Shown here: positions 7,154-62,752 of the stretch, one piece after another
Layout of the letters: each line of letters starts with the position of its first letter
How positions within the stretch are numbered: position 1 is the stretch's first letter
DNA from: a virus
Lineage: Duplodnaviria > Heunggongvirae > Uroviricota > Caudoviricetes
Reading direction: 5' to 3' (one strand)
IMG/VR virus record: IMGVR_UViG_3300031999_000001
Location: 136,058-200,057 of that record
DNA: 64,000 nucleotides
Notes under the pieces: generated by a model
The model's input: the letters and a program-made list of their open reading frames with translations, nothing else
Databases searched by the model: none
Told to the model about the DNA's origin: nothing
Made by a program: the position numbers and the translations under genes

Positions 7154-7822
7154 TTATTTATTTATTAATTTTAAATTATATTTACTTACATTAAAATCAG
7201 ACCTACTACCTAATAATTTGGTCATATGAATATTATCACCATGTATTGTCAAAAGCACATTTAAATTATCTATTTTTATTCCTTTAATGAAAATTCCAAT
7301 ACTACCATGTGATTTTGAATATGGTATACATTTATATTCATCTTTTTTTTCCATAACTGAAATAAAACCACTTGTACCTGTTGCATTCCATGTTTTTTTT
7401 CCTTTTGTTATTATATTAATCATATCCATTTTTTTTATATCATAATAAAATGGAAATTCTGTTTCAATTATAGATTTATGAAGATTTTCAACAAAATCAT
7501 TACCCAAACAATTATCACTATCAATTCTTGTTGTTAAAACATATTCTTCATCAATAAGTTCCAGTAATTTCGGTAATATTTCTTTAAGAATTTTATTTGC
7601 TCCTGATGATTCAAGCAATAATTGATATTCATTACTAATTTTACCCACAGGTTCATATCCCCATAAAGTAACGAACTTAAAATTTTTATTAGTTTGCACT
7701 TCAATTGATGACCTTAATGTATTATTTAAAATATTAATTCTATTATTAAGCCAGACTTCATCTTTTGATTGTGGAAGCCATTTAATATTAACTCTACTAA
7801 CAATTAAATGTGTAAATTTCAT
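7154..7822 (-). CDS. Putative glycosyltransferase (putative rhamnosyltransferase-like, GT-A)
   Basis: WLNNR..SIEVQTNKNF and TTRIDSDN pattern. Confidence 0.6.
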   Translation of the reverse strand: MKFTHLIVSRVNIKWLPQSKDEVWLNNRINILNNTLRSSIEVQTNKNFKFVTLWGYEPVGKISNEYQLLLESSGANKILKEILPKLLELIDEEYVLTTRIDSDNCLGNDFVENLHKSIIETEFPFYYDIKKMDMINIITKGKKTWNATGTSGFISVMEKKDEYKCIPYSKSHGSIGIFIKGIKIDNLNVLLTIHGDNIHMTKLLGSRSDFNVSKYNLKLINK

Positions 7823-7825
7823 ATT

Positions 7826-8827
7826 TTACTTTATTAAAAAACCACCCTCAAATAATAATTCACGTAAATAATTTTTATCCTTTATATTATCTGCCGATGA
7901 AAATGTTTTAAAATTTACTTTTTTATGATTATTTAAGTACGTATATTCTTTATTTATTTTTATTGATGGTAATATAATATAATAATTTTCATAAAATTTA
8001 TATGAATTCACTGATTCGTGTTCAGATATTAATATTTCATGTACTTTCTCACCCTCTCTAATGCCAATCTCTTCAATTTTTGTATCTGAATTTCCATAAT
8101 ATTCAATCAACACCTTTGCTAAATCACTAATATAAAATGATGGCATATTCATTACAAAAGTTTCACCACCAATGCTATGTTCAGCAGCTTCAAATAATAA
8201 AAAAATTGCTTGAGATAATGTAAGAAAAAATCTGGTCATTGTCTTATCAGTAATTGTTACTTTATTTTGTGTTTTAATTTGATTAATAAAATGTGGAACA
8301 ACACTACCATTTGAACCCAAAACATTACCACCCCTAATACAAACAAAATCAGTATTATTTGTTAAATTATTTGCCTGAATTGTAAGTTTTTCACCAACCG
8401 ATTTTGTCATTCCATATAAATTCGTTGGTGAAACCGCTTTATCTGTTGAAATATCAACAAACTTTTTAACTCCATACTTAATAGCAGAATTAATTAAATT
8501 TATTGTTCCAATAATATTAGTTTTTATTGCTTCTTGTGGTTGATTTTCACAAACAGGAACATGTTTTAATGCTGCGAGATGAAAAACATAATTAATATTT
8601 TTATGATTAAATAATCTATCAACAGCATCCGCATCACGAACATCACCAATAATATATTCAATTTTATTATTATTAAATTTTCTCAGCATGTTTACTTGTG
8701 CAAGTTCACCACGAGAATATATAATTATTTTTTTTGGGTCTTTCTCCAAAAGTTGTAATGTTAATTCATTTCCCCATGAACCCGAACCACCATCAATTAA
8801 AATTATTTTGTTTTCAAACATAATCAT
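7826..8827 (-). CDS. UDP-GlcNAc 4,6-dehydratase/5-epimerase (FnlA/CapE/PseB family)
   Basis: GGSGSWG, GDVRD, FHLAALKHVP, STDKAV.P.NLYGMTK, GNVLGSNGSV, MTRF, GIREGEK. Confidence 0.9.
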   Translation of the reverse strand: MIMFENKIILIDGGSGSWGNELTLQLLEKDPKKIIIYSRGELAQVNMLRKFNNNKIEYIIGDVRDADAVDRLFNHKNINYVFHLAALKHVPVCENQPQEAIKTNIIGTINLINSAIKYGVKKFVDISTDKAVSPTNLYGMTKSVGEKLTIQANNLTNNTDFVCIRGGNVLGSNGSVVPHFINQIKTQNKVTITDKTMTRFFLTLSQAIFLLFEAAEHSIGGETFVMNMPSFYISDLAKVLIEYYGNSDTKIEEIGIREGEKVHEILISEHESVNSYKFYENYYIILPSIKINKEYTYLNNHKKVNFKTFSSADNIKDKNYLRELLFEGGFLIK

Positions 8828-9462
8828 TTATTAATTTTTATCATTCTTATTATTTTAAATGACTCAGCATATTCCAAATTAGATGAAAAACCACGAATAT
8901 TTGAATAACTCATTAATAGTTCTTTTGGTCTAAATTTTCTTACTTGTGATTTATGTAATTTATATGCATTTATTTTATTTTCAATATCAATTTCTTCAAA
9001 ATAATTTGGTTGAAATTCATTTTCACCCCAAAGTAAATATTGTTCAACCTCATAAACAAACACATTTGGTACAAAATAATTTAAATCATGTGGTCTTAAT
9101 GCAACAATACAAGCATCATAAACTTCTTTATGATCTTGATTGTATGAAAAATTTGGAATAAAAATTTCATTTGGTTTTAATTCATTAATAATATCAGTAA
9201 TTTCATTAATTATCATTTCTTTTTTATAATTATTTACTTGATTAGTACCTATTCGATATTCAAAATTTAAAAATTTCGATACTGCATCAACTTCTTTAAT
9301 TCTTTCATCTCTTCTCACAACATGAAATAAATCAATACCTAAATAATAAACAAAAGAACAATTATTATTTTTTCTATTATTTAAAATTCCAGCACAACCC
9401 AATACTTCATCATCACAATGTGGTGATATTATTAATGTTTTATATGTCTTTTTCATATTCAA
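8824..9462 (-). CDS. PIG-L/LmbE-family N-acetyl sugar deacetylase
   Basis: SPHCDDEVLG, NQDH, HKSQ, AESF motifs. Confidence 0.85.
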   Translation of the reverse strand: MNMKKTYKTLIISPHCDDEVLGCAGILNNRKNNNCSFVYYLGIDLFHVVRRDERIKEVDAVSKFLNFEYRIGTNQVNNYKKEMIINEITDIINELKPNEIFIPNFSYNQDHKEVYDACIVALRPHDLNYFVPNVFVYEVEQYLLWGENEFQPNYFEEIDIENKINAYKLHKSQVRKFRPKELLMSYSNIRGFSSNLEYAESFKIIRMIKINK

Positions 9463-10105
9463 TAATTTTTAATATAATTTTTCCAGTTTTACAATTAATA
9501 TAACATTCTGGATATGGTTTTTGTAACGAACGTACTTTATTATAAAAATATTCAGCATCGTTATTTAAAAAATCTTCTGGTTTTATTTCAGAATTATTTG
9601 GCTTTAAACGTTTGTATGTTGTAGCTTCTTCCTTATTTTGTTTTATCCATAATATTGAATCATTCTTATAATTTTCAATAAAATCTTTTGTTCCTATAAT
9701 ACCAAAATTTTCTATTTTTTTTAATATTATATCTAAATATCCGTTTAATTCAAAATCAACCTGATAATATATATCACCATCATCTAATCCCTTTTCCATT
9801 TTAAATATTGTAACTGCTGAAAATTTTTCCCCTGCAATTATTTGATTTTGTATTGGTGTTCCGCCTCTATATTTGGGTAATTTTGATGGATGTAAACATA
9901 AACAAATATAAGAATCAACAATTTTCTGAGACACCATCCAACTCCAACCATAAAAAAATATAACATCTGGATTTATTATATTAATAAAATCAATTGTACA
10001 TAATTTTTTATTTGTAATAAGTATATATTCATCTTCCAATGAAGATATTTCCTTAAAAATATTAATTGCCCAATCTCTATATGCAAAAAATAAAAATCTT
10101 TTCAT
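9440..10105 (-). CDS. Formyltransferase (Fmt-like, probably sugar N-formyltransferase)
   Basis: LHPSKLPKYRGGTP, LDDGDI, VRSLQKPYP. Confidence 0.85.
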   Translation of the reverse strand: MKRFLFFAYRDWAINIFKEISSLEDEYILITNKKLCTIDFINIINPDVIFFYGWSWMVSQKIVDSYICLCLHPSKLPKYRGGTPIQNQIIAGEKFSAVTIFKMEKGLDDGDIYYQVDFELNGYLDIILKKIENFGIIGTKDFIENYKNDSILWIKQNKEEATTYKRLKPNNSEIKPEDFLNNDAEYFYNKVRSLQKPYPECYINCKTGKIILKIIEYEKDI

Positions 10106-10863
10106 ATTTTTTTATGTTTTTCACCTTCCTGAAAATGATACACAATAGAATCATTTGAATTTATATGTTTTACACCAATTGAATTTAGTCTAACAAAAAA
10201 TTCAGTATCACCAGTTCTTGATATTATATTATATTTTCCATTATGTAAATTTCCTTCTGGATAATATCCAACCTTTTCAATAATATCTTTATATAGCATT
10301 ATTGGCATAAAAAGATTTCCAATTGAAATACTATCATTTTTTATTTCATTTACTTTTTTTAGAAACGCTTCTTCGTTAAAATTTTTTATTGTTTGTCCAA
10401 AATCATAATGTTCACAAACAGATAAATTAATTGGATTGGTAAATCTATGATGAGGCTGTATTATTTTTGAGGAAACCACAACTTCACGTGTTAATCTCTT
10501 TTTTAAATTAACTAACCAATCTGGTGAAAATGCATTATCGCTATTAATCAACATTATTATTGGATTATTAGACATTCTAATACCATAATTATATCCAGCA
10601 TATACTCTACTTATATATTCTGGATATGCAAATCCCATATTAAATAATTCTTGTTCTGTACGCTTAATATTATTATTTATAAAATGTGGATAATTTTTTT
10701 CTTTTAGAAGTTTTAATACATCATCAGTTGCATCATTAGCAACAAAATAAAATTCTGCTTCATCGCAATTAAGTTCAGGTGTGTGTTTTATGAGATTATT
10801 ATATACAAACTCGGCATATTCAACAGATTGATATATTAATGATATGATTGATATTTTTTCCAT
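10102..10863 (-). CDS. GT2-like glycosyltransferase
   Basis: INSDN DxD-like motif, VGYY, GD..F, VYHFQEGE. Confidence 0.7.
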   Translation of the reverse strand: MEKISIISLIYQSVEYAEFVYNNLIKHTPELNCDEAEFYFVANDATDDVLKLLKEKNYPHFINNNIKRTEQELFNMGFAYPEYISRVYAGYNYGIRMSNNPIIMLINSDNAFSPDWLVNLKKRLTREVVVSSKIIQPHHRFTNPINLSVCEHYDFGQTIKNFNEEAFLKKVNEIKNDSISIGNLFMPIMLYKDIIEKVGYYPEGNLHNGKYNIISRTGDTEFFVRLNSIGVKHINSNDSIVYHFQEGEKHKKI

Positions 10864-10867
10864 AATT

Positions 10868-11551
10868 TTATTTCTTTGGTATTAACATTATTGAACATCT
10901 TGGCACATAATGAACTTTAGTATTATATAAAATTTTATTATTAATTTTATCATTTTTTTTCATTAATTGACATATATACATATCTGGTAGATCAGTCATA
11001 TATTCAACATCATATTTATCAAGAATATTATTATAATAATATAATTGTTCCGAATATGTTTTTTTATTAAAATCAAACCAGTCATGAATAAAAATACATT
11101 TACTATGATTAATTAAATTTAAAAAATTTTCATTTATGAATTTTGCCATTTTGGTAGAATGTTCACAATCAATCAAGAACATATCAAATTCGTTATTTTT
11201 AATAAACTTTTGAATTACATCATATTGTTCATAAAGATTAATTTTTTCATATTTTATATCATAAAATATTGGTTGTAATGCAAAACTTGTGCGTTTAATT
11301 CCTAAACTATCAATAAATTTACTTGAACTTCCAGCACCGAATTCAACAACATTTGTTATATTATTTTCAAATATAAACCTTTTTAATATAAATAAATCAA
11401 ATGGATTTATGCCGAAATTTTGTCCGATTAATTTTACAATATCATCTAATCTATATTCATCAATAAAATTAAAAATCTTATTGAAAATATTCTGATAATT
11501 ATATTTATAATTATTTGAATTTGATATTATTATTCCCCATTCATCTCCCAT
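10868..11551 (-). CDS. Class I SAM-dependent methyltransferase
   Basis: VVEFGAGSSS, FLIDCEH, IFIHD. Confidence 0.7.
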   Translation of the reverse strand: MGDEWGIIISNSNNYKYNYQNIFNKIFNFIDEYRLDDIVKLIGQNFGINPFDLFILKRFIFENNITNVVEFGAGSSSKFIDSLGIKRTSFALQPIFYDIKYEKINLYEQYDVIQKFIKNNEFDMFLIDCEHSTKMAKFINENFLNLINHSKCIFIHDWFDFNKKTYSEQLYYYNNILDKYDVEYMTDLPDMYICQLMKKNDKINNKILYNTKVHYVPRCSIMLIPKK

Positions 11552-11552
11552 T

Positions 11553-12386
11553 TTACATATTATTTATATAATTTTCCCATAAAATTTTGCCCGTATATCT
11601 GTCCCATTGTTTTTCGAAAATAACATCTCTTGGATTATCACCCGCTTCAAAATCTTTTTCAATATTTAAAATTTTTCTTTGTTTAAGATTACATGCCATT
11701 CCTTCATATTCAATAATATAATAGGGTCTTAAAAGACTGACAGATAATTGAAAATCAGCACAATTCATCAATTCTACCATTTTTTGTTGATTTATTAATA
11801 CGTGTTGTTGACCATATCCATTAAAATCACCCTTATTTGGATACCAAACAATAATCCAATAAATGCTCGGATTCTCATTTGCATATTTTTGAACATGTTG
11901 AAATCCTTTCATTGGATGTGTTGTTCCACACCAAAAACCAATTTCTTTATTTAATGGAACACCATATTTTAATTTTAAATTATATTTTTCTTCATCTGAA
12001 TACGATTTAAATAAATCAGTATTAACACAAATAGGTAATATATCAACTTTACCATACGGTTCATAAAATGGTACTGCAAATTTTGATGATACAACTCTTC
12101 TGTTGGCTGCTTTTGCAGTTTGATATGTTACATTAATAACACCATCCCAATGATTAACATTAAAAACTTCTTTCATTTCAGGATATAATTCCCAACATAA
12201 AGCAATTACATTTGCTGGCATTGCATTTAACGGTCCTGCAGTTGAATATCTTAAAACAGTATCATTTTCATTATATTGTAAAGGAAGTTTAAATGATGTG
12301 TTTTCAAAAACTTTTTCAAACCACACCCAAAATGTTTCTTCTCCATATGCACATTTTAATCCATGTATTGGTGATAAATATATCAT
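11553..12386 (-). CDS. GT-B (GT4-like) glycosyltransferase
   Basis: VNTDLFK, HPMKG, LMNCAD, EGMACN. Confidence 0.7.
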   Translation of the reverse strand: MIYLSPIHGLKCAYGEETFWVWFEKVFENTSFKLPLQYNENDTVLRYSTAGPLNAMPANVIALCWELYPEMKEVFNVNHWDGVINVTYQTAKAANRRVVSSKFAVPFYEPYGKVDILPICVNTDLFKSYSDEEKYNLKLKYGVPLNKEIGFWCGTTHPMKGFQHVQKYANENPSIYWIIVWYPNKGDFNGYGQQHVLINQQKMVELMNCADFQLSVSLLRPYYIIEYEGMACNLKQRKILNIEKDFEAGDNPRDVIFEKQWDRYTGKILWENYINNM

Positions 12387-21961: not shown

Positions 21962-22502
21962 TTTTCCACATTTTATTTCTAATTATTCTTGAAATGCTTA
22001 TTTCAGACACACCATATTTTCTCGCAAGAAATTGATAACCATCTTTTTTCAATATGTTGTTAAATTTAAACATACGAATTTCTTGTACTTGAATATTATT
22101 TAATTTAGCATTTATATTATTTTCACCACACATATTTAGACCATTTAAATGCCCCTCGACTTTTCTGGCAAGATTATAAATTTTATTGCTGAAATATTTA
22201 AAATAATAATCCAAATATTGTTGTTCAACATCATGTAATTGATTTTTATCAAAAATTTGAACAATTATTGAAAACATAAAATTCTGCGAACCATATTTAT
22301 TCCAAGCATGCTGTAAATAAATATTATAATGCTTATTATTATTTAATAAATGTATATGATGACTCCAACGATTTTTATAATCATAAGCACTGCCAATATA
22401 AAACTTACCATCTACCAAATTTAATATTTGATATATTGAACGTGGACTTGCTTCAAAATAATCAGGAAAATCATTTTTTATTCTAATTGCATTAGATTTC
22501 AT
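21954..22502 (-). mobile_element. Free-standing GIY-YIG homing endonuclease with C-terminal HTH
   Basis: SIYQI.N...FYIGSA...RW..H, EQ..LD, YN; C-term GENNINAKL...LARKYGVS..SISRI. Confidence 0.85.
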
Positions 22503-58731: not shown

Positions 58732-58965
58732 ATGAAAAAAATAATAAAAAAACATGAAAAAACAATAGAAGAACTCGAACAAGAATTAGATAAATTGAAA
58801 GAATCAAATAGAGCATCTTGGGAGAGATATGGTAGTGAACTTTGTGCTGGCGAAATGATTGCCAAAGAAGAAGCGTTGGAAAATCAGATATTAAAACTAA
58901 AAATTAAAGAAGATTTTGAAAAAAATAAATTTGTTGAAAACCCATCACAAATTATCGATAATTAA
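58732..58965 (+). CDS. Hypothetical coiled-coil protein
   Basis: 77 aa; W..YGSELCAG. Confidence 0.55.
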   Translation: MKKIIKKHEKTIEELEQELDKLKESNRASWERYGSELCAGEMIAKEEALENQILKLKIKEDFEKNKFVENPSQIIDN

Positions 58966-58977
58966 TAAATTATATAT

Positions 58978-59262
58978 ATGGAATGGATAGTTAAAATTGA
59001 AAATCAACCAAATCAGAGAATTTTGGTTAAATTCGACCCAAAAAATGAAGTATTATTATTCATTGGACAATATAAACCACATAATAAAGAATGGGTAAAT
59101 TTTAGTGAAGAATCACATTCAATGAAAATTGATTTGGAAACAATTCAGGATTCGCTTTATAAGACATATAAAAAAATGAAAGAAAGACTTGATACATATG
59201 AAAATATTGCAGAAGGTTTTTCGGTAATTAAATTAATTGAAATAAAGGAAGAATTGTATTAA
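58978..59262 (+). CDS. Hypothetical protein
   Basis: 94 aa ORF. Confidence 0.55.
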   Translation: MEWIVKIENQPNQRILVKFDPKNEVLLFIGQYKPHNKEWVNFSEESHSMKIDLETIQDSLYKTYKKMKERLDTYENIAEGFSVIKLIEIKEELY

Positions 59263-60986
59263 ATTTCTTCAAAAATAAAATATTCTACATACCAAGGTTT
59301 ACCAGTTTTTATTTCAATTTGTTTTCTTTTAAATTTACTTTCTAAAATAATATCGGGATAAGTATTCTGAATGTGTATTGTCAATATACCTGATTTATTA
59401 ACATAATCCGAAAAACGTTTATTCGTTTTTTTACAAATTGCAAAATATTTAATTGATTTATTAAAAAAAGAAAGATTTTTATTTGAATTATTTTTTATTA
59501 TTTTATTTAATGTCGAATAATTTATGGAATATTTATTAGATAATTCACGTATTGATATATGATTTTTATTAAAGTCAATAACCATTTTATTAATTTCTTC
59601 TGCATCAAAATTATTAATTGTTATTATGTTTTTCTTTATGTGTTTAGGGATTGTATTTGAAATATAATCAGTCTCATAGCACCAAATTATATTTGTTAAT
59701 TGTTTATTGCGACCAGAACACATTCTTAATATTGATTGCATTGATAAATTATCACGATTCATTCTACCAGCGTTTGCTAATGATTCATATCTCTCCAAAA
59801 TTATTTTTTTGTCATTATCTACTTTAATAACAGGTTTACTGATTTTTAATATTCTTTTTTTAATCCACAAATCATTTTGTTTAACATTTTTTCTAATGTT
59901 TGATAATTTTATTATTGTTTCAGAATTGGCTATTGAGTTTTTACCCCCAAATTCAATATTATATCCCAAGTTTCTATTAGTAGTATTATGTTCAAAAATA
60001 TATCTAATTTCCTTATAATTTAATTCATCTATTGTTTGTGCAGTATCGATAATAGTAAATTCAAAATTATCAAATCCATATTTATCAAATGCTTTTAAAA
60101 TATATGGATTACAACATTTGGCTCTATTTTTATATTCATTATATCTATCGTTTAAACTTCTTGTGGTTTGTCCAACATATTTTTTATTATTAATTTTATT
60201 ATCTATTAAATAAATTACTCCAACAATTTCATTATTTTTTTTAGGATATTGTAATATTAAATGACCAATACTTTTTAAAAACATTTTATTTTCATTTTTA
60301 TTTCCAATAAAATAAAAGTATCTTCTTTTTCTATATTGCTGTAAAAATATTGCATTTGGATATTTTTGTAATATAACATCTCTTTTTATTGTTCCGAATT
60401 CTTTTCTAATTGAACGTGAGTGTTTTAGTTTGCCATTAATAAAAACAGAAAATCTTTTAGTTTCTTTACCATTTTTTCCATAATTACCACTCATTAAACC
60501 AACATAATACCAATTTAATGATTGATATATTATTCCAATTTCACCTGCTGCGGGGTCTACAGTTGCAGTAATTATTTTATAATTAGTATTTTTTTTCAAC
60601 CAATCAATTGTTTTGCCAATAAAATAAGAAGCAGTATTTTTTGGTGTCCACCATAAACAAACACCTCTACTTAACAATATTATTTTATTTGTAAATCCAA
60701 ATTTATCCCATGTAGTTGCTTTATTTGCTGAATATTCTTCAGAATAAATAACAACACCACCCAAATAATCATTACCTTCAATACTAAAATATATTCCAAA
60801 ATAAAATTTATTAAATAGTGGCATTGATTTAAGCCATTCATATTTTAATATTATTTCTTTTGCAATATTTGAATCAATTAATTTTATTGTCGTGTTTTTT
60901 AATAATATATTATTTTTATTAAAAGGAATTGTATTTCTTTCAAGAATTTCTTGTTCTTTTCTTATTTTATATTGATATGCTTCCAC
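59259..60986 (-). CDS. Fusion: Mom-like (GNAT-fold) DNA-modification domain + GIY-YIG endonuclease + HTH/NUMOD-like tail
   Basis: IILKYEWL, LSRGVCLWWTPKNTASYFI, TATVDPAAGEIGIIYQSLNWYYVG, KRRYFYF; then GVIYLI.N.INNKKYVGQT..R, E..YI, GYN. Likely GTG start at 60986. Confidence 0.75.
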   Translation of the reverse strand: MEAYQYKIRKEQEILERNTIPFNKNNILLKNTTIKLIDSNIAKEIILKYEWLKSMPLFNKFYFGIYFSIEGNDYLGGVVIYSEEYSANKATTWDKFGFTNKIILLSRGVCLWWTPKNTASYFIGKTIDWLKKNTNYKIITATVDPAAGEIGIIYQSLNWYYVGLMSGNYGKNGKETKRFSVFINGKLKHSRSIRKEFGTIKRDVILQKYPNAIFLQQYRKRRYFYFIGNKNENKMFLKSIGHLILQYPKKNNEIVGVIYLIDNKINNKKYVGQTTRSLNDRYNEYKNRAKCCNPYILKAFDKYGFDNFEFTIIDTAQTIDELNYKEIRYIFEHNTTNRNLGYNIEFGGKNSIANSETIIKLSNIRKNVKQNDLWIKKRILKISKPVIKVDNDKKIILERYESLANAGRMNRDNLSMQSILRMCSGRNKQLTNIIWCYETDYISNTIPKHIKKNIITINNFDAEEINKMVIDFNKNHISIRELSNKYSINYSTLNKIIKNNSNKNLSFFNKSIKYFAICKKTNKRFSDYVNKSGILTIHIQNTYPDIILESKFKRKQIEIKTGKPWYVEYFIFEEI

Positions 60987-61027
60987 AATTATAAATGTTT
61001 TGATTTTACGCCAAAATGTAAAGATAA

Positions 61028-61057
61028 AAAAAGAGTTGGAATATTCCAACTCTTTTT
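61028..61057 (-). terminator. Terminator after the major capsid gene
   Basis: Perfect 30-bp palindrome aaaaagagttggaat|attccaactcttttt. Confidence 0.8.
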
Positions 61058-61078: not shown

Positions 61079-62752
61079 TTATTGTAAATCACCAATTCCA
61101 AAAGTCTGAAGACCATCGCAGAAAATTCTACCATAGTAACGATTAAGAACCATTTTCTTTGCATATCTGGTCATAATTCCACGAATAGGTGTAAAGTCAA
61201 ATGGATTGTACATTACCGGAGTTAATTGCATTGGTACGTAAGGAGCGTAAATGTAGCCAGTCTCCAAAATACTTGTTCCTTTATGACCAACCAATACTGT
61301 ATTAGCTGGTGCATATGGGTCACGATATACAATATAACGACCACTTAATGTACCTATTTTTTCAATACCCATGTTATACTTATCCTGTTCGGGAGCAGCA
61401 TTACTTACATGGAAATATTCAAGGTCATCGAATACTGCACTTACTTCAGGAGATACAACAACCCAAGAAGCACCACCACGAAGGGTAGACTTATGAATTT
61501 GTGCTGAAATCTGGTTGATTTTTGTAACCAATGTCTGATTCCAGTCTTTTTGTACACCATAATAAGTGTTAGTTCCTTTACGAAGTCCGTTCCAATCCCA
61601 ACGAGCTGTCCAAGCAGCACCACGTCTAAGATCACGAAGAATTTCACGGTCAATTTCAGCAGCCATTTGTTCTGACAATAAAGCAGTTAATTCAGCTTCA
61701 GCGTCAATGTTATGAAATGCTGATACGTCTTGTGCAAGTTCAGGTGTCCACATAGCACGCATTTTACGTGTTTCTACGGATACTGTTACTTGGTCAAGTA
61801 CAAAAGTAACTTCTGCCATTTGTGAATCTTCTTCAAGGTCACTGTATGCTCTATACGTTGCTGTAAAAGTAACTGCAGATGTTGCAGCACTTAATGCCTG
61901 ATAACCATTAGCACCCGGATATTGCAAGTCAGCAATAAGAATAATTTGTCCAGCACTATTAACAATTGCTTGTCCATATTTCTGAACTTTTACGTTGAAA
62001 GGAAGTGAATTACCAGCAGTAATGCTTTCGCTTGCATAAGGAGCAGGAGCATCCAAATCAGTATCGCAAACTATTCTTAAACCAGCAAGAAATGATTCTG
62101 TGTCCATTGGAACACCAGCAGGACCAATTAATTTACCTTGGTCGGTAAATGAAAAACCACCTACTGTTAAAGTAGCGAATTTATCAGTACCAACTGTAAA
62201 AGGTAATGCAGCAGTTAAACCAGTTACTGATATAACTGTTATTTCACCTTTTGAACGATCAAACAATGATGTACCTTCTTCAGAATAACTATTTGCATAG
62301 AATGCATCATATAATGAACGGCTTTCAAATTGTGTTCTTGCTGATAATGCAAGGTTGGCAGCATTTTGATATGCACCATTTGGTGATGTATGTTCAAAAC
62401 CAGCAGGAGCAACCCTAATACTGGCTTTTGGATTGATGTAGTACAATTTACCAATCGGTAAGTTAAGTGCCTGTACAGACACTATGTCGTTTGCTAAAAG
62501 TTTAGCAAATACTCTACGGATTACGGGAAATGCAACGGTTTCGAATTGTCCACTTGCTGTTGAATCTGAAGATTCATTAATCATATGTGACAATTGGTTT
62601 TCGAATAACTGCGCACAGTTTTCTTTTACATTGCCTTCCAAACCCTCTAACAAACCGATTTTTTCCCAACGGTTTGTTGTTATTTCTCTTTGTTCACGAA
62701 GTTGTTTTAAACCAATATTTCCAACTTCGGCACTTTCCATTAAAAATCCCAT
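61079..62752 (-). CDS. gp23: Major capsid protein (T4 gp23-like)
   Basis: FPVIRRVF..L.ANDIVSVQ, TRKMRA.WTPELAQD...H.IDAEAEL, EIDREI, YAPYVP, P.RGIMTRY. Confidence 0.95.
   Translation of the reverse strand: MGFLMESAEVGNIGLKQLREQREITTNRWEKIGLLEGLEGNVKENCAQLFENQLSHMINESSDSTASGQFETVAFPVIRRVFAKLLANDIVSVQALNLPIGKLYYINPKASIRVAPAGFEHTSPNGAYQNAANLALSARTQFESRSLYDAFYANSYSEEGTSLFDRSKGEITVISVTGLTAALPFTVGTDKFATLTVGGFSFTDQGKLIGPAGVPMDTESFLAGLRIVCDTDLDAPAPYASESITAGNSLPFNVKVQKYGQAIVNSAGQIILIADLQYPGANGYQALSAATSAVTFTATYRAYSDLEEDSQMAEVTFVLDQVTVSVETRKMRAMWTPELAQDVSAFHNIDAEAELTALLSEQMAAEIDREILRDLRRGAAWTARWDWNGLRKGTNTYYGVQKDWNQTLVTKINQISAQIHKSTLRGGASWVVVSPEVSAVFDDLEYFHVSNAAPEQDKYNMGIEKIGTLSGRYIVYRDPYAPANTVLVGHKGTSILETGYIYAPYVPMQLTPVMYNPFDFTPIRGIMTRYAKKMVLNRYYGRIFCDGLQTFGIGDLQ

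Follow-up and report, generated by a model that had tools for sequence, protein, structure and literature searches.

Why would a phage homing endonuclease carry, ahead of its nuclease, a complete domain of a DNA-modifying type? This question is posed by a gene directly behind the major capsid gene of an uncultured T4-like phage, in a 64,000-nucleotide (nt) stretch of DNA (positions 136,058 to 200,057 of IMG/VR record IMGVR_UViG_3300031999_000001; hereafter the window) that forms the last 64 kb of this 200-kb viral record. The gene encodes a single chain in which a complete GNAT domain of the Mom type, a complete I-TevI-like GIY-YIG nuclease and a tethered DNA-binding tail follow each other head to tail, and it comes and goes among close relatives, like a mobile element. 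We consider it highly probable that this is a mobile homing endonuclease gene whose Mom-type domain is intact. What the Mom half does is a more tentative matter, for which several readings are weighed here.

Architecture of the fusion protein

The open reading frame (ORF; 59259..60986, minus strand) is open throughout and encodes 575 amino acids (aa). A longer alternative would start at a TTG codon at 61049, in a frame that would cross the gp23 terminator; the start at 60986 is supported, because homologues share the N-terminus MEAYQYKIRK. Residues 32-249 match the Mom family PF25680 over profile positions 2-202 of 202 (Pfam; E 8e-23, 81.6 bits against a curated cut-off of 27.1), and the PHROGs database returned phrog_1384, 'Mom-like DNA modification protein' (E 3.5e-25), together with three homing-endonuclease families. 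An earlier note, made from the letters alone, had recognised Mom hallmark motifs in this N-terminal part; we found them as LLSRGVCLWWTPKNTASYFI, TATVDPAAGEIGIIYQSLNWYYVG and RKRRYFYF. The GNAT/Mom-like fold that the note expected is also what the structure search (Foldseek) placed on top, with Mu Mom as best PDB match of the Mom half (8bv8_A/8bv8_B, E 5e-10, template-modelling score (TM) 0.65-0.70) and generic GNATs behind.

The GIY-YIG domain starts six residues past the end of the Mom domain, at a junction that agrees with the coordinate of about 60240 proposed earlier. It matches PF01541 at residues 256-337 (27.2 bits, cut-off 22.6) as well as the family SegE_GIY-YIG, and its fold matches the catalytic domain of I-TevI (1mk0/1ln0, TM 0.76-0.79), which bears out the note's claim of a complete GIY-YIG module in the same frame. 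The AlphaFold2 (AF2) model of the whole protein, built with 110 homologues as input, reached a mean predicted local distance difference test score (pLDDT) of 87, falling to 66-72 across the linker region, residues 341-380. The linker is followed by helical or helix-turn-helix (HTH) and BED-like modules, a tethered layout as in GIY-YIG homing endonucleases. The HTH-like repeats of the note are borne out in part, by a single HTH_psq match that is weak and below cut-off (residues 473-498, E 0.0025) and by a BED-like module. The group I intron endonuclease family TIGR01453 (NCBIfam) covers residues 257-503 with E 2e-12, likewise below cut-off. Over the last 57 residues (518-574) there is 44% identity (E 7e-11) with the BED zinc-finger module of P0124, a Hef-type endonuclease from the same slot of a related phage (locus L025). 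The guanine-plus-cytosine content is 19-27% in the fusion gene, against 34-40% in gp23.

Conservation of the two catalytic centres

One alignment combined Mu Mom (from NC_000929; its numbering agrees with the residue list of Silva et al. 2026, PMC13219725), five further Moms from phages and 17 proteins of the fusion family; conservation was read from a second alignment, of 110 fusion clusters at 90% identity. In Mu Mom, R111, S124, D149 and R151 are essential, and strongly reduced activity was reported for H58, Y59, Y159, W48 and W181 (PMC13219725). Mu R111, S124, D149 and Y159 correspond to R107, S120, D144 and Y154 of the fusion protein. R107 and Y154 are invariant in the 110 clusters, conservation of S120 and D144 is 90% or more, and the same R, S, D and Y are invariant over all Mom homologues aligned. 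The fusion protein also has a region, basic in character, that aligns to the Mom-specific insertion of the Mu protein (residues 175-209). In the nuclease, Y259, Y270, R281, E326 and N343 correspond to I-TevI Y6, Y17, R27, E75 and N90; R281 is at least 90% conserved and the other four are invariant.

These key residues of both centres are thus kept in the 110 fusion clusters, while others of the Mu list are replaced, as set out further below. Among orthologues of the 575-aa type, identity amounts to 78-82% in the Mom domain, the best conserved part, 75-82% in the GIY-YIG domain and 51-56% in the tail; homologues with DNA available are 63-72% identical. Judged from this conservation, neither half looks like a decaying passenger.

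Spread of the fusion and origin of the phage

Among 5.8 billion proteins searched, 195 matched at E <= 0.001. Among the 120 matches listed, nearly all contain PF25680 and most PF01541; about 20 are of the 575-aa type and the majority have 485-500 aa, sharing residues 1-380 at about 55-62% identity and ending in a different, NUMOD-type tail. The domain junction is common to at least 110 separate 90%-identity clusters from many samples, and 42 viral-contig loci in IMG/VR encode relatives. The fusion is therefore real, since the clusters share both the junction and the tested catalytic residues, and the assembly artefact that the note had raised as an alternative is ruled out.

The phage, of about 330 kb, is a member of an uncultured T4-like clade with sizes of 320-365 kb; the nearest cultured gp23 relatives, Flavobacterium phages among them, are about 30-43% identical. 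Most of the stretch was found in three sediment-metagenome DNA runs, of which two may be its source; no RNA runs holding it were listed in the sequencing-run search. The phage collection contained neither near-identical phage records nor any record with both domains at one place, and the 64-kb window contains no tRNA genes. We found no description of a Mom-GIY-YIG fusion in the literature searched; a cyanophage paper of 2025 reports a 'mom' ORF and leaves a fusion unmentioned (PMC12801897).

A mobile gene in the slot behind gp23

The earlier note had placed the gene directly after the capsid gene, and the upstream neighbour is indeed Gp23 (Table 1). The gene has the same position in nearly all of the 42 loci. 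We fetched 80 loci by gp23 alone (cited here by L numbers) and compared the slot between gp23 and the downstream 94-aa gene or helicase, counting loci with more than one cassette under more than one heading. In 10 of the 80 loci the slot is empty (56-128 bp, terminator only), and most others hold other cassettes. Mom-GIY-YIG genes were found in about 16 loci, two small secreted or membrane-type ORFs in about 16, another N-terminal domain of about 250 aa ('X') on the same GIY-YIG/NUMOD module in about 18, and a GIY-YIG gene without N-terminal domain, or Hef-type genes, in several. The homing-endonuclease behaviour suggested by the note, next to a conserved T4-like gene, accordingly fits what is seen: a gene of the free-standing type behind gp23, sporadic in relatives.

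On a gp23 tree of 64 distinct loci, made with a quick tree method, the Mom-GIY label, present in 14 rows, required 13 changes, a number indistinguishable from that for shuffled labels. The nearest relative, L044, with a 90% identical gp23, has an empty site. Of five CheckV-complete relatives, three lack PF25680, one has four matches (in ORFs of 289-638 aa) and one has a single match. Because three of the five are without a match, the PF25680-type Mom is an accessory in this clade; for the same reason, we reject the view that Mom belongs to the clade's core as an anti-restriction gene.

Locus L051 (= L002) holds two Mom-GIY-YIG genes in tandem behind gp23, one of the approximately 490-aa NUMOD type (8770-9888) and then one of the 575-aa BED-tail type (10242-11960). 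It is always the 575-aa type that adjoins the 94-aa gene, and the sites recognised by the two types may therefore differ.

Flanks of the cassette

The 94-aa gene is conserved beside the slot in most relatives. On the other side, the last 75 nt of gp23 are near-identical between occupied and empty loci, and divergence begins about 6 nt past the stop codon; gp23 is the likely region of the homing target. The terminator behind gp23 differs between loci with and without an endonuclease. Its stem motif [GC]TTG[GC]A was found in 20 of 36 loci with an endonuclease versus 3 of 28 without one (Fisher p 2e-4), and the box TAnnTTTG follows the T-run directly in 18 of 36 versus 1 of 28, both counts being without phylogenetic correction. 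Stem type and box are each shared regardless of gp23 kinship, as would be expected from co-conversion of the flanks with the cassette.

The conserved upstream element (Table 1) may be the promoter of the cassette; sigma-70-type promoters showed no excess over chance. TAnnTTTG after the T-run was seen in the window, L051, L061, L066, L068, L074, L082, L087 and L096, and the cassettes that have it lack a Shine-Dalgarno sequence ahead of their start codon. The box resembles the -7 promoter box of Bacteroidota, and Bacteroidota are not known to use Shine-Dalgarno sequences. Together, the two features may hint at the phylum of the host.

Table 1. The fusion gene, its parts and its neighbours (positions in the window)
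Feature	Position	Strand	Remarks
Whole gene: Mom-GIY-YIG-DNA-binding fusion, 575 aa	59259..60986	-	GTG start; stop codon 59259-59261
Mom-type GNAT domain, residues 1-249	60240..60986	-	PF25680, Foldseek, aligned Mu residues; C-terminal YPK motif of the family at its end
GIY-YIG nuclease domain, residues 256-345	59952..60221	-	PF01541 and PF19835 above cut-offs
Linker and DNA-binding tail, residues 346-575	59262..59951	-	Low-confidence linker 346-380; helical/HTH about 462-503; BED-finger-like 518-574
gp23-like major capsid gene, conserved left flank	61079..62752	-	PF07068, E 6e-74
Bidirectional intrinsic terminator of gp23	61028..61057	.	Between both genes; 13-bp; stem type GAGTTGGAA...
Conserved upstream element of the 575-aa-type cassette	61011..61026	-	TATCTTTACATTTTGG; like the TAnnTTTG box of sister cassettes
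Convergent 94-aa gene, right flank	58978..59262	+	4-nt overlap with the 3' end of the endonuclease gene
77-aa ORF	58732..58965	+	Coiled-coil-like
UvrD-like helicase, 495 aa	57225..58712	+	Intact

Mom-like domains on other nucleases

The combination of a Mom-like domain with a nuclease is not confined to the GIY-YIG form. The Hef-type protein P0124 (541 aa) consists of an HTH, three BED fingers, a Vsr-like nuclease motif (AIEYNG..WH, identified by eye) and a C-terminal domain X; it matches 416 phage records, many annotated 'Hef-like homing endonuclease', and has 12 matching places in single Campylobacter phage genomes. Domain X has no Pfam match and no PDB sequence match, is weakly related to Mom by profile comparison (hhalign E 0.085), and matches the C-terminal part of the PHROG 'homing endonuclease' families 3339 and 559. 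The best PDB match of its AF2 model (pLDDT 84) is again Mu Mom (8bv8, E 1.6e-7). We accept the link between the Hef-type GNAT and Mom, because the fold search put 8bv8 on top and the domain matches phrog_1384 with E 8e-7.

An HNH form was found behind gp23 in a distant subclade (gp23 about 53% identical), as a 470-aa protein with an HTH, an HNH nuclease and a C-terminal PF25680 Mom that is 53% identical to that of the window. Its nuclease motif, WHIDHIIP...N, was identified by eye, and the protein matches phrog_1035, 'endonuclease VII' (E 1.3e-14). Mom-like GNATs are hence joined to three unrelated nuclease folds, GIY-YIG, HNH and Vsr-like. In L025, an HTH-HNH-Mom gene (7332-8744, plus strand) lies tail to tail with the Hef-type HTH-3xBED-Vsr-GNAT gene (8775-10400, minus strand) behind gp23.

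Mom also occurs unattached to nucleases. Free-standing Moms of 243-278 aa, 41-49% identical, were found on contigs of 16-32 kb. A gene in L092 (10739-11680, minus strand; 314 aa) joins a homologue of the window's 77-aa ORF to a full Mom (PF25680, E 2.5e-25), with no nuclease.

On a tree of GIY-YIG cores, the gene of the window belongs to a well-supported clade of four 575-aa genes. Cores with Mom and cores with X separate for the most part, but at least one swap has taken place. The GNAT-less enzymes of L091 and L099, which have the same tail and occupy the same slot, form a separate clade; a recent loss of Mom within the same lineage is thus unsupported, and the shared tail reflects domain shuffling. 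As far as these sequences tell, domain shuffling among the cassettes at this slot is frequent.

Fusions of Mom to a nuclease have been interpreted before. Iyer et al. 2021 described Mom-REase fusions in T4-like jumbo phages and proposed a modify-and-cut idea, predicting that modification shields the phage and that the nuclease attacks host or superinfecting DNA (PMC7824862); the Hef-type architecture appears to us to correspond to their 'Mom fused to REase-fold endoDNase'. Applied to the present gene, this single-chain, restriction-modification-like weapon would have Mom mark all phage DNA as self while the nuclease broadly degrades unmodified DNA of the host or of superinfecting phages instead of cutting at one homing site. 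The published precedent and the recurrence of Mom-like domains on three nuclease folds in the clade speak for it, yet the nuclease is of the I-TevI/Seg type with a long tethered tail, typical of homing enzymes with long sites, and the sporadic occurrence of the gene at one place behind gp23 is the signature of homing and not of a general defence. We therefore regard such a weapon as quite improbable here.

Comparison with known systems

The N-terminal half resembles Mu Mom in its full-length Pfam match, its best PDB fold match, its GNAT core with insertion, the residues R111, S124, D149 and Y159, and the YPK motif. Mu Mom itself is a GNAT that hypermodifies the N6 of adenine in double-stranded DNA with glycine taken from Gly-tRNA(Gly) (Silva et al. 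2026, PMC13219725). Whereas the Mu protein is a free-standing 241-aa dimer under the control of Com, the Mom of the fusion is the N-terminus of a nuclease.

With Seg enzymes and I-TevI the protein shares a GIY-YIG core with all key residues, the linker and the tethered DNA-binding modules, and its gene shares their AT-rich composition and their sporadic, intergenic position beside a conserved essential gene. It differs in the end of its tail, a BED-finger-like module that Hef-type enzymes have as well. No Seg or I-TevI protein is known to carry an N-terminal GNAT/Mom domain, and the literature searched yielded none.

The Hef-like enzymes, too, unite a nuclease, a Mom-like GNAT and zinc-finger or HTH modules in one mobile chain. 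Sister phages have Hef-like genes in this very slot (P0124 in L025, and L078, L088 and L106). In these enzymes, however, the nuclease is a Vsr-like PD-(D/E)xK enzyme, the GNAT is C-terminal, diverged and undetected by PF25680, and the domain order is reversed. With its GIY-YIG nuclease and N-terminal PF25680 GNAT, the fusion protein has only the BED-like module in common with the Hef-like family; it works like a member although it stands outside that family. Hef of phage U5 is homing-endonuclease-like and cleaves nrdB, according to the accounts of Sandegren et al. 2005 in PMC2988022 and PMC3296691.

Other contents and neighbours of the slot

The alternative cassette of two small ORFs was seen at L047 (8777-9632), L045 (8766-9663), L098, L092 and about 12 further loci. 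One ORF encodes 147-183 aa with an N-terminal signal-like segment and the other 140-174 aa; neither has a family match. The motif AGTATTTAT is conserved ahead of this cassette and is possibly the late promoter of the clade.

The UvrD-like helicase beside the slot, intact in the window, is broken in many relatives by inserts of about 0.9-1 kb near residues 24-37, 204-209 and 245 (L066:10841-13237, minus strand; L058, L068, L071-73, L086, L095, L105-108 and L113). The insert of L066 keeps the reading frame (798-aa ORF, Cys...THN|S) and is thereby marked as an intein. In the interval from the 94-aa gene to the helicase, L045 has a YspA/SLOG gene (9982-10323, minus strand; PF10686, E 2e-19), of which copies in L044 (9016-9378, minus strand) and L092 (10047-10433, minus strand) were identified by sequence similarity only; the window has no YspA/SLOG-like ORF of 50 aa or more at this place. 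The record of the window contains two more GIY-YIG matches without Mom, in frames of 183 and 269 aa, at about 22203-22439 of the window (minus strand) and at C1:112357-112626.

What the Mom half may do

The best explanation as a whole, to which we would give slightly less than an even chance, is a mobile homing endonuclease with a locally acting Mom half. The gene would be a free-standing GIY-YIG homing endonuclease gene in a hypervariable slot that extends from the gp23 terminator to the next gene. Its origin would lie in the insertion of a homing endonuclease gene immediately behind a free-standing mom of a phage and in the loss of the intervening stop codon; such a read-through origin is suggested because the Mom domain extends in full up to its terminal YPK motif, the GIY-YIG domain follows so closely, and free-standing Moms exist. 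The Mom half may still be enzymatically active and attach an acyl or aminoacyl group to the N6 of adenine, the least certain step of this account. Tied to the nuclease by some 6-12 residues and sharing its linker and tail, it would act locally, at or near the site that the endonuclease itself recognises and cuts, most likely with the effect that the carrier copy of the site is made cut-resistant or that over-cutting is limited. Unmodified, endonuclease-free genomes would be cut and converted in a co-infection. Local self-protection as the mechanism is a tentative proposal, rather less likely than not.

A role tied to each endonuclease is favoured over genome-wide anti-restriction because close complete relatives are without a PF25680-type Mom, because there can be several nuclease-GNAT genes per genome (four PF25680 matches in G002), and because the GNAT sits beside the nuclease on the same tether and tail, so that both active sites could reach the same DNA. 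The tandem Mom-GIY genes of L051, the HNH-Mom gene beside a Hef-type gene in L025 and the 12 places in Campylobacter phages also support it, as do the three unrelated nuclease folds to which Mom-like GNATs are joined.

Several points weigh against a locally acting Mom enzyme. At about 17% identity to Mu Mom, the fusion protein has an alanine (A146) in place of the essential R151, has E50/W51 in place of H58/Y59, and keeps neither W181 nor W48, a dimer residue in Mu. The E50/W51 pair is also seen in the homologues of Staphylococcus phage f2b1 and Vibrio phage 501E54-1, and the positions of R151 and H58/Y59 vary in other annotated phage Moms as well; given these changes, the donor, the chemistry or even activity could differ from those of Mu Mom. 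The inter-domain geometry of the AF2 model is uncertain (predicted TM score 0.53). Furthermore, the GNAT is dispensable for a GIY-YIG endonuclease at this slot, because the GNAT-less enzymes of L091 and L099 live there. Finally, the distinct terminator of carrier loci could equally be a sequence-based immune allele, and this sequence difference could alone give ordinary immunity.

The replaced R151 and H58/Y59 would suit a GNAT that is non-enzymatic or repurposed, either as an extra module for DNA recognition, base-flipping or dimerisation, or as a charged-tRNA sensor that regulates the nuclease. The GNAT of the sister Hef-type enzymes is far more diverged from Mom, to which it is linked by the fold search while profile comparison is weak, and Mu Mom binds both double-stranded DNA and tRNA (PMC13219725). 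A structural role would, however, need none of the R, S, D and Y that are invariant or nearly so in the fusion clusters, and we consider such repurposing improbable.

A further reading, which the note had put forward beside that of a one-gene element that modifies self and cuts competitors, is that of an ordinary selfish homing endonuclease whose Mom half is cargo, a genome-wide anti-restriction momylase that benefits the phage; selection on the phage would then maintain the fusion, and homing would spread it. Mu Mom is a proven anti-restriction enzyme (PMC13219725), catalytic residues of Mom are kept in the fusion together with the HTH-like insertion region, free-standing Moms occur in the same lineage, and the 200-kb record contains a single Mom. 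Yet 2-4 Mom-nuclease genes, or 12 Hef-type places, per genome would be redundant for a global modifier, one that most of the complete close relatives (3 of 5) do without in its PF25680 form. The Mom domain is moreover attached to a site-specific DNA-binding tail, and arbitrary cargo predicts many kinds of domain, whereas Mom-like GNATs recur. The cargo reading thus appears unlikely.

Implications

The concept of Mom with a nuclease is already in print and Hef-like enzymes are well known, while no description of the GIY-YIG form was found in the papers searched. If its Mom half is plain cargo or inactive, the gene is an ordinary mobile gene. A wider view, which we find doubtful, is that Mom-like GNATs are a general accessory of homing endonucleases, providing site-directed, possibly tRNA-dependent adenine hypermodification that protects the carrier's target. 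If this is true, each such gene would act as a gene drive that resembles a site-specific restriction-modification system in a single polypeptide, and three unrelated nuclease folds would have arrived at this solution: GIY-YIG, HNH and the Vsr-like fold of Hef. As the Gly-tRNA donor chemistry of Mom is now published (final form 2026, bioRxiv preprint 2023; PMC13219725), the role of the Mom half has become directly testable in vitro. A site-directed adenine hypermodifier on a programmable DNA-binding tail could also serve as a tool.

Homing endonucleases are thought to spare their own genome through differences in the target sequence. If a protective Mom half is confirmed, a built-in DNA-modifying domain would represent a different, epigenetic route to self-immunity, and it would account for the presence of a Mom-like domain on the large Hef-like family as well as on GIY-YIG and HNH enzymes.

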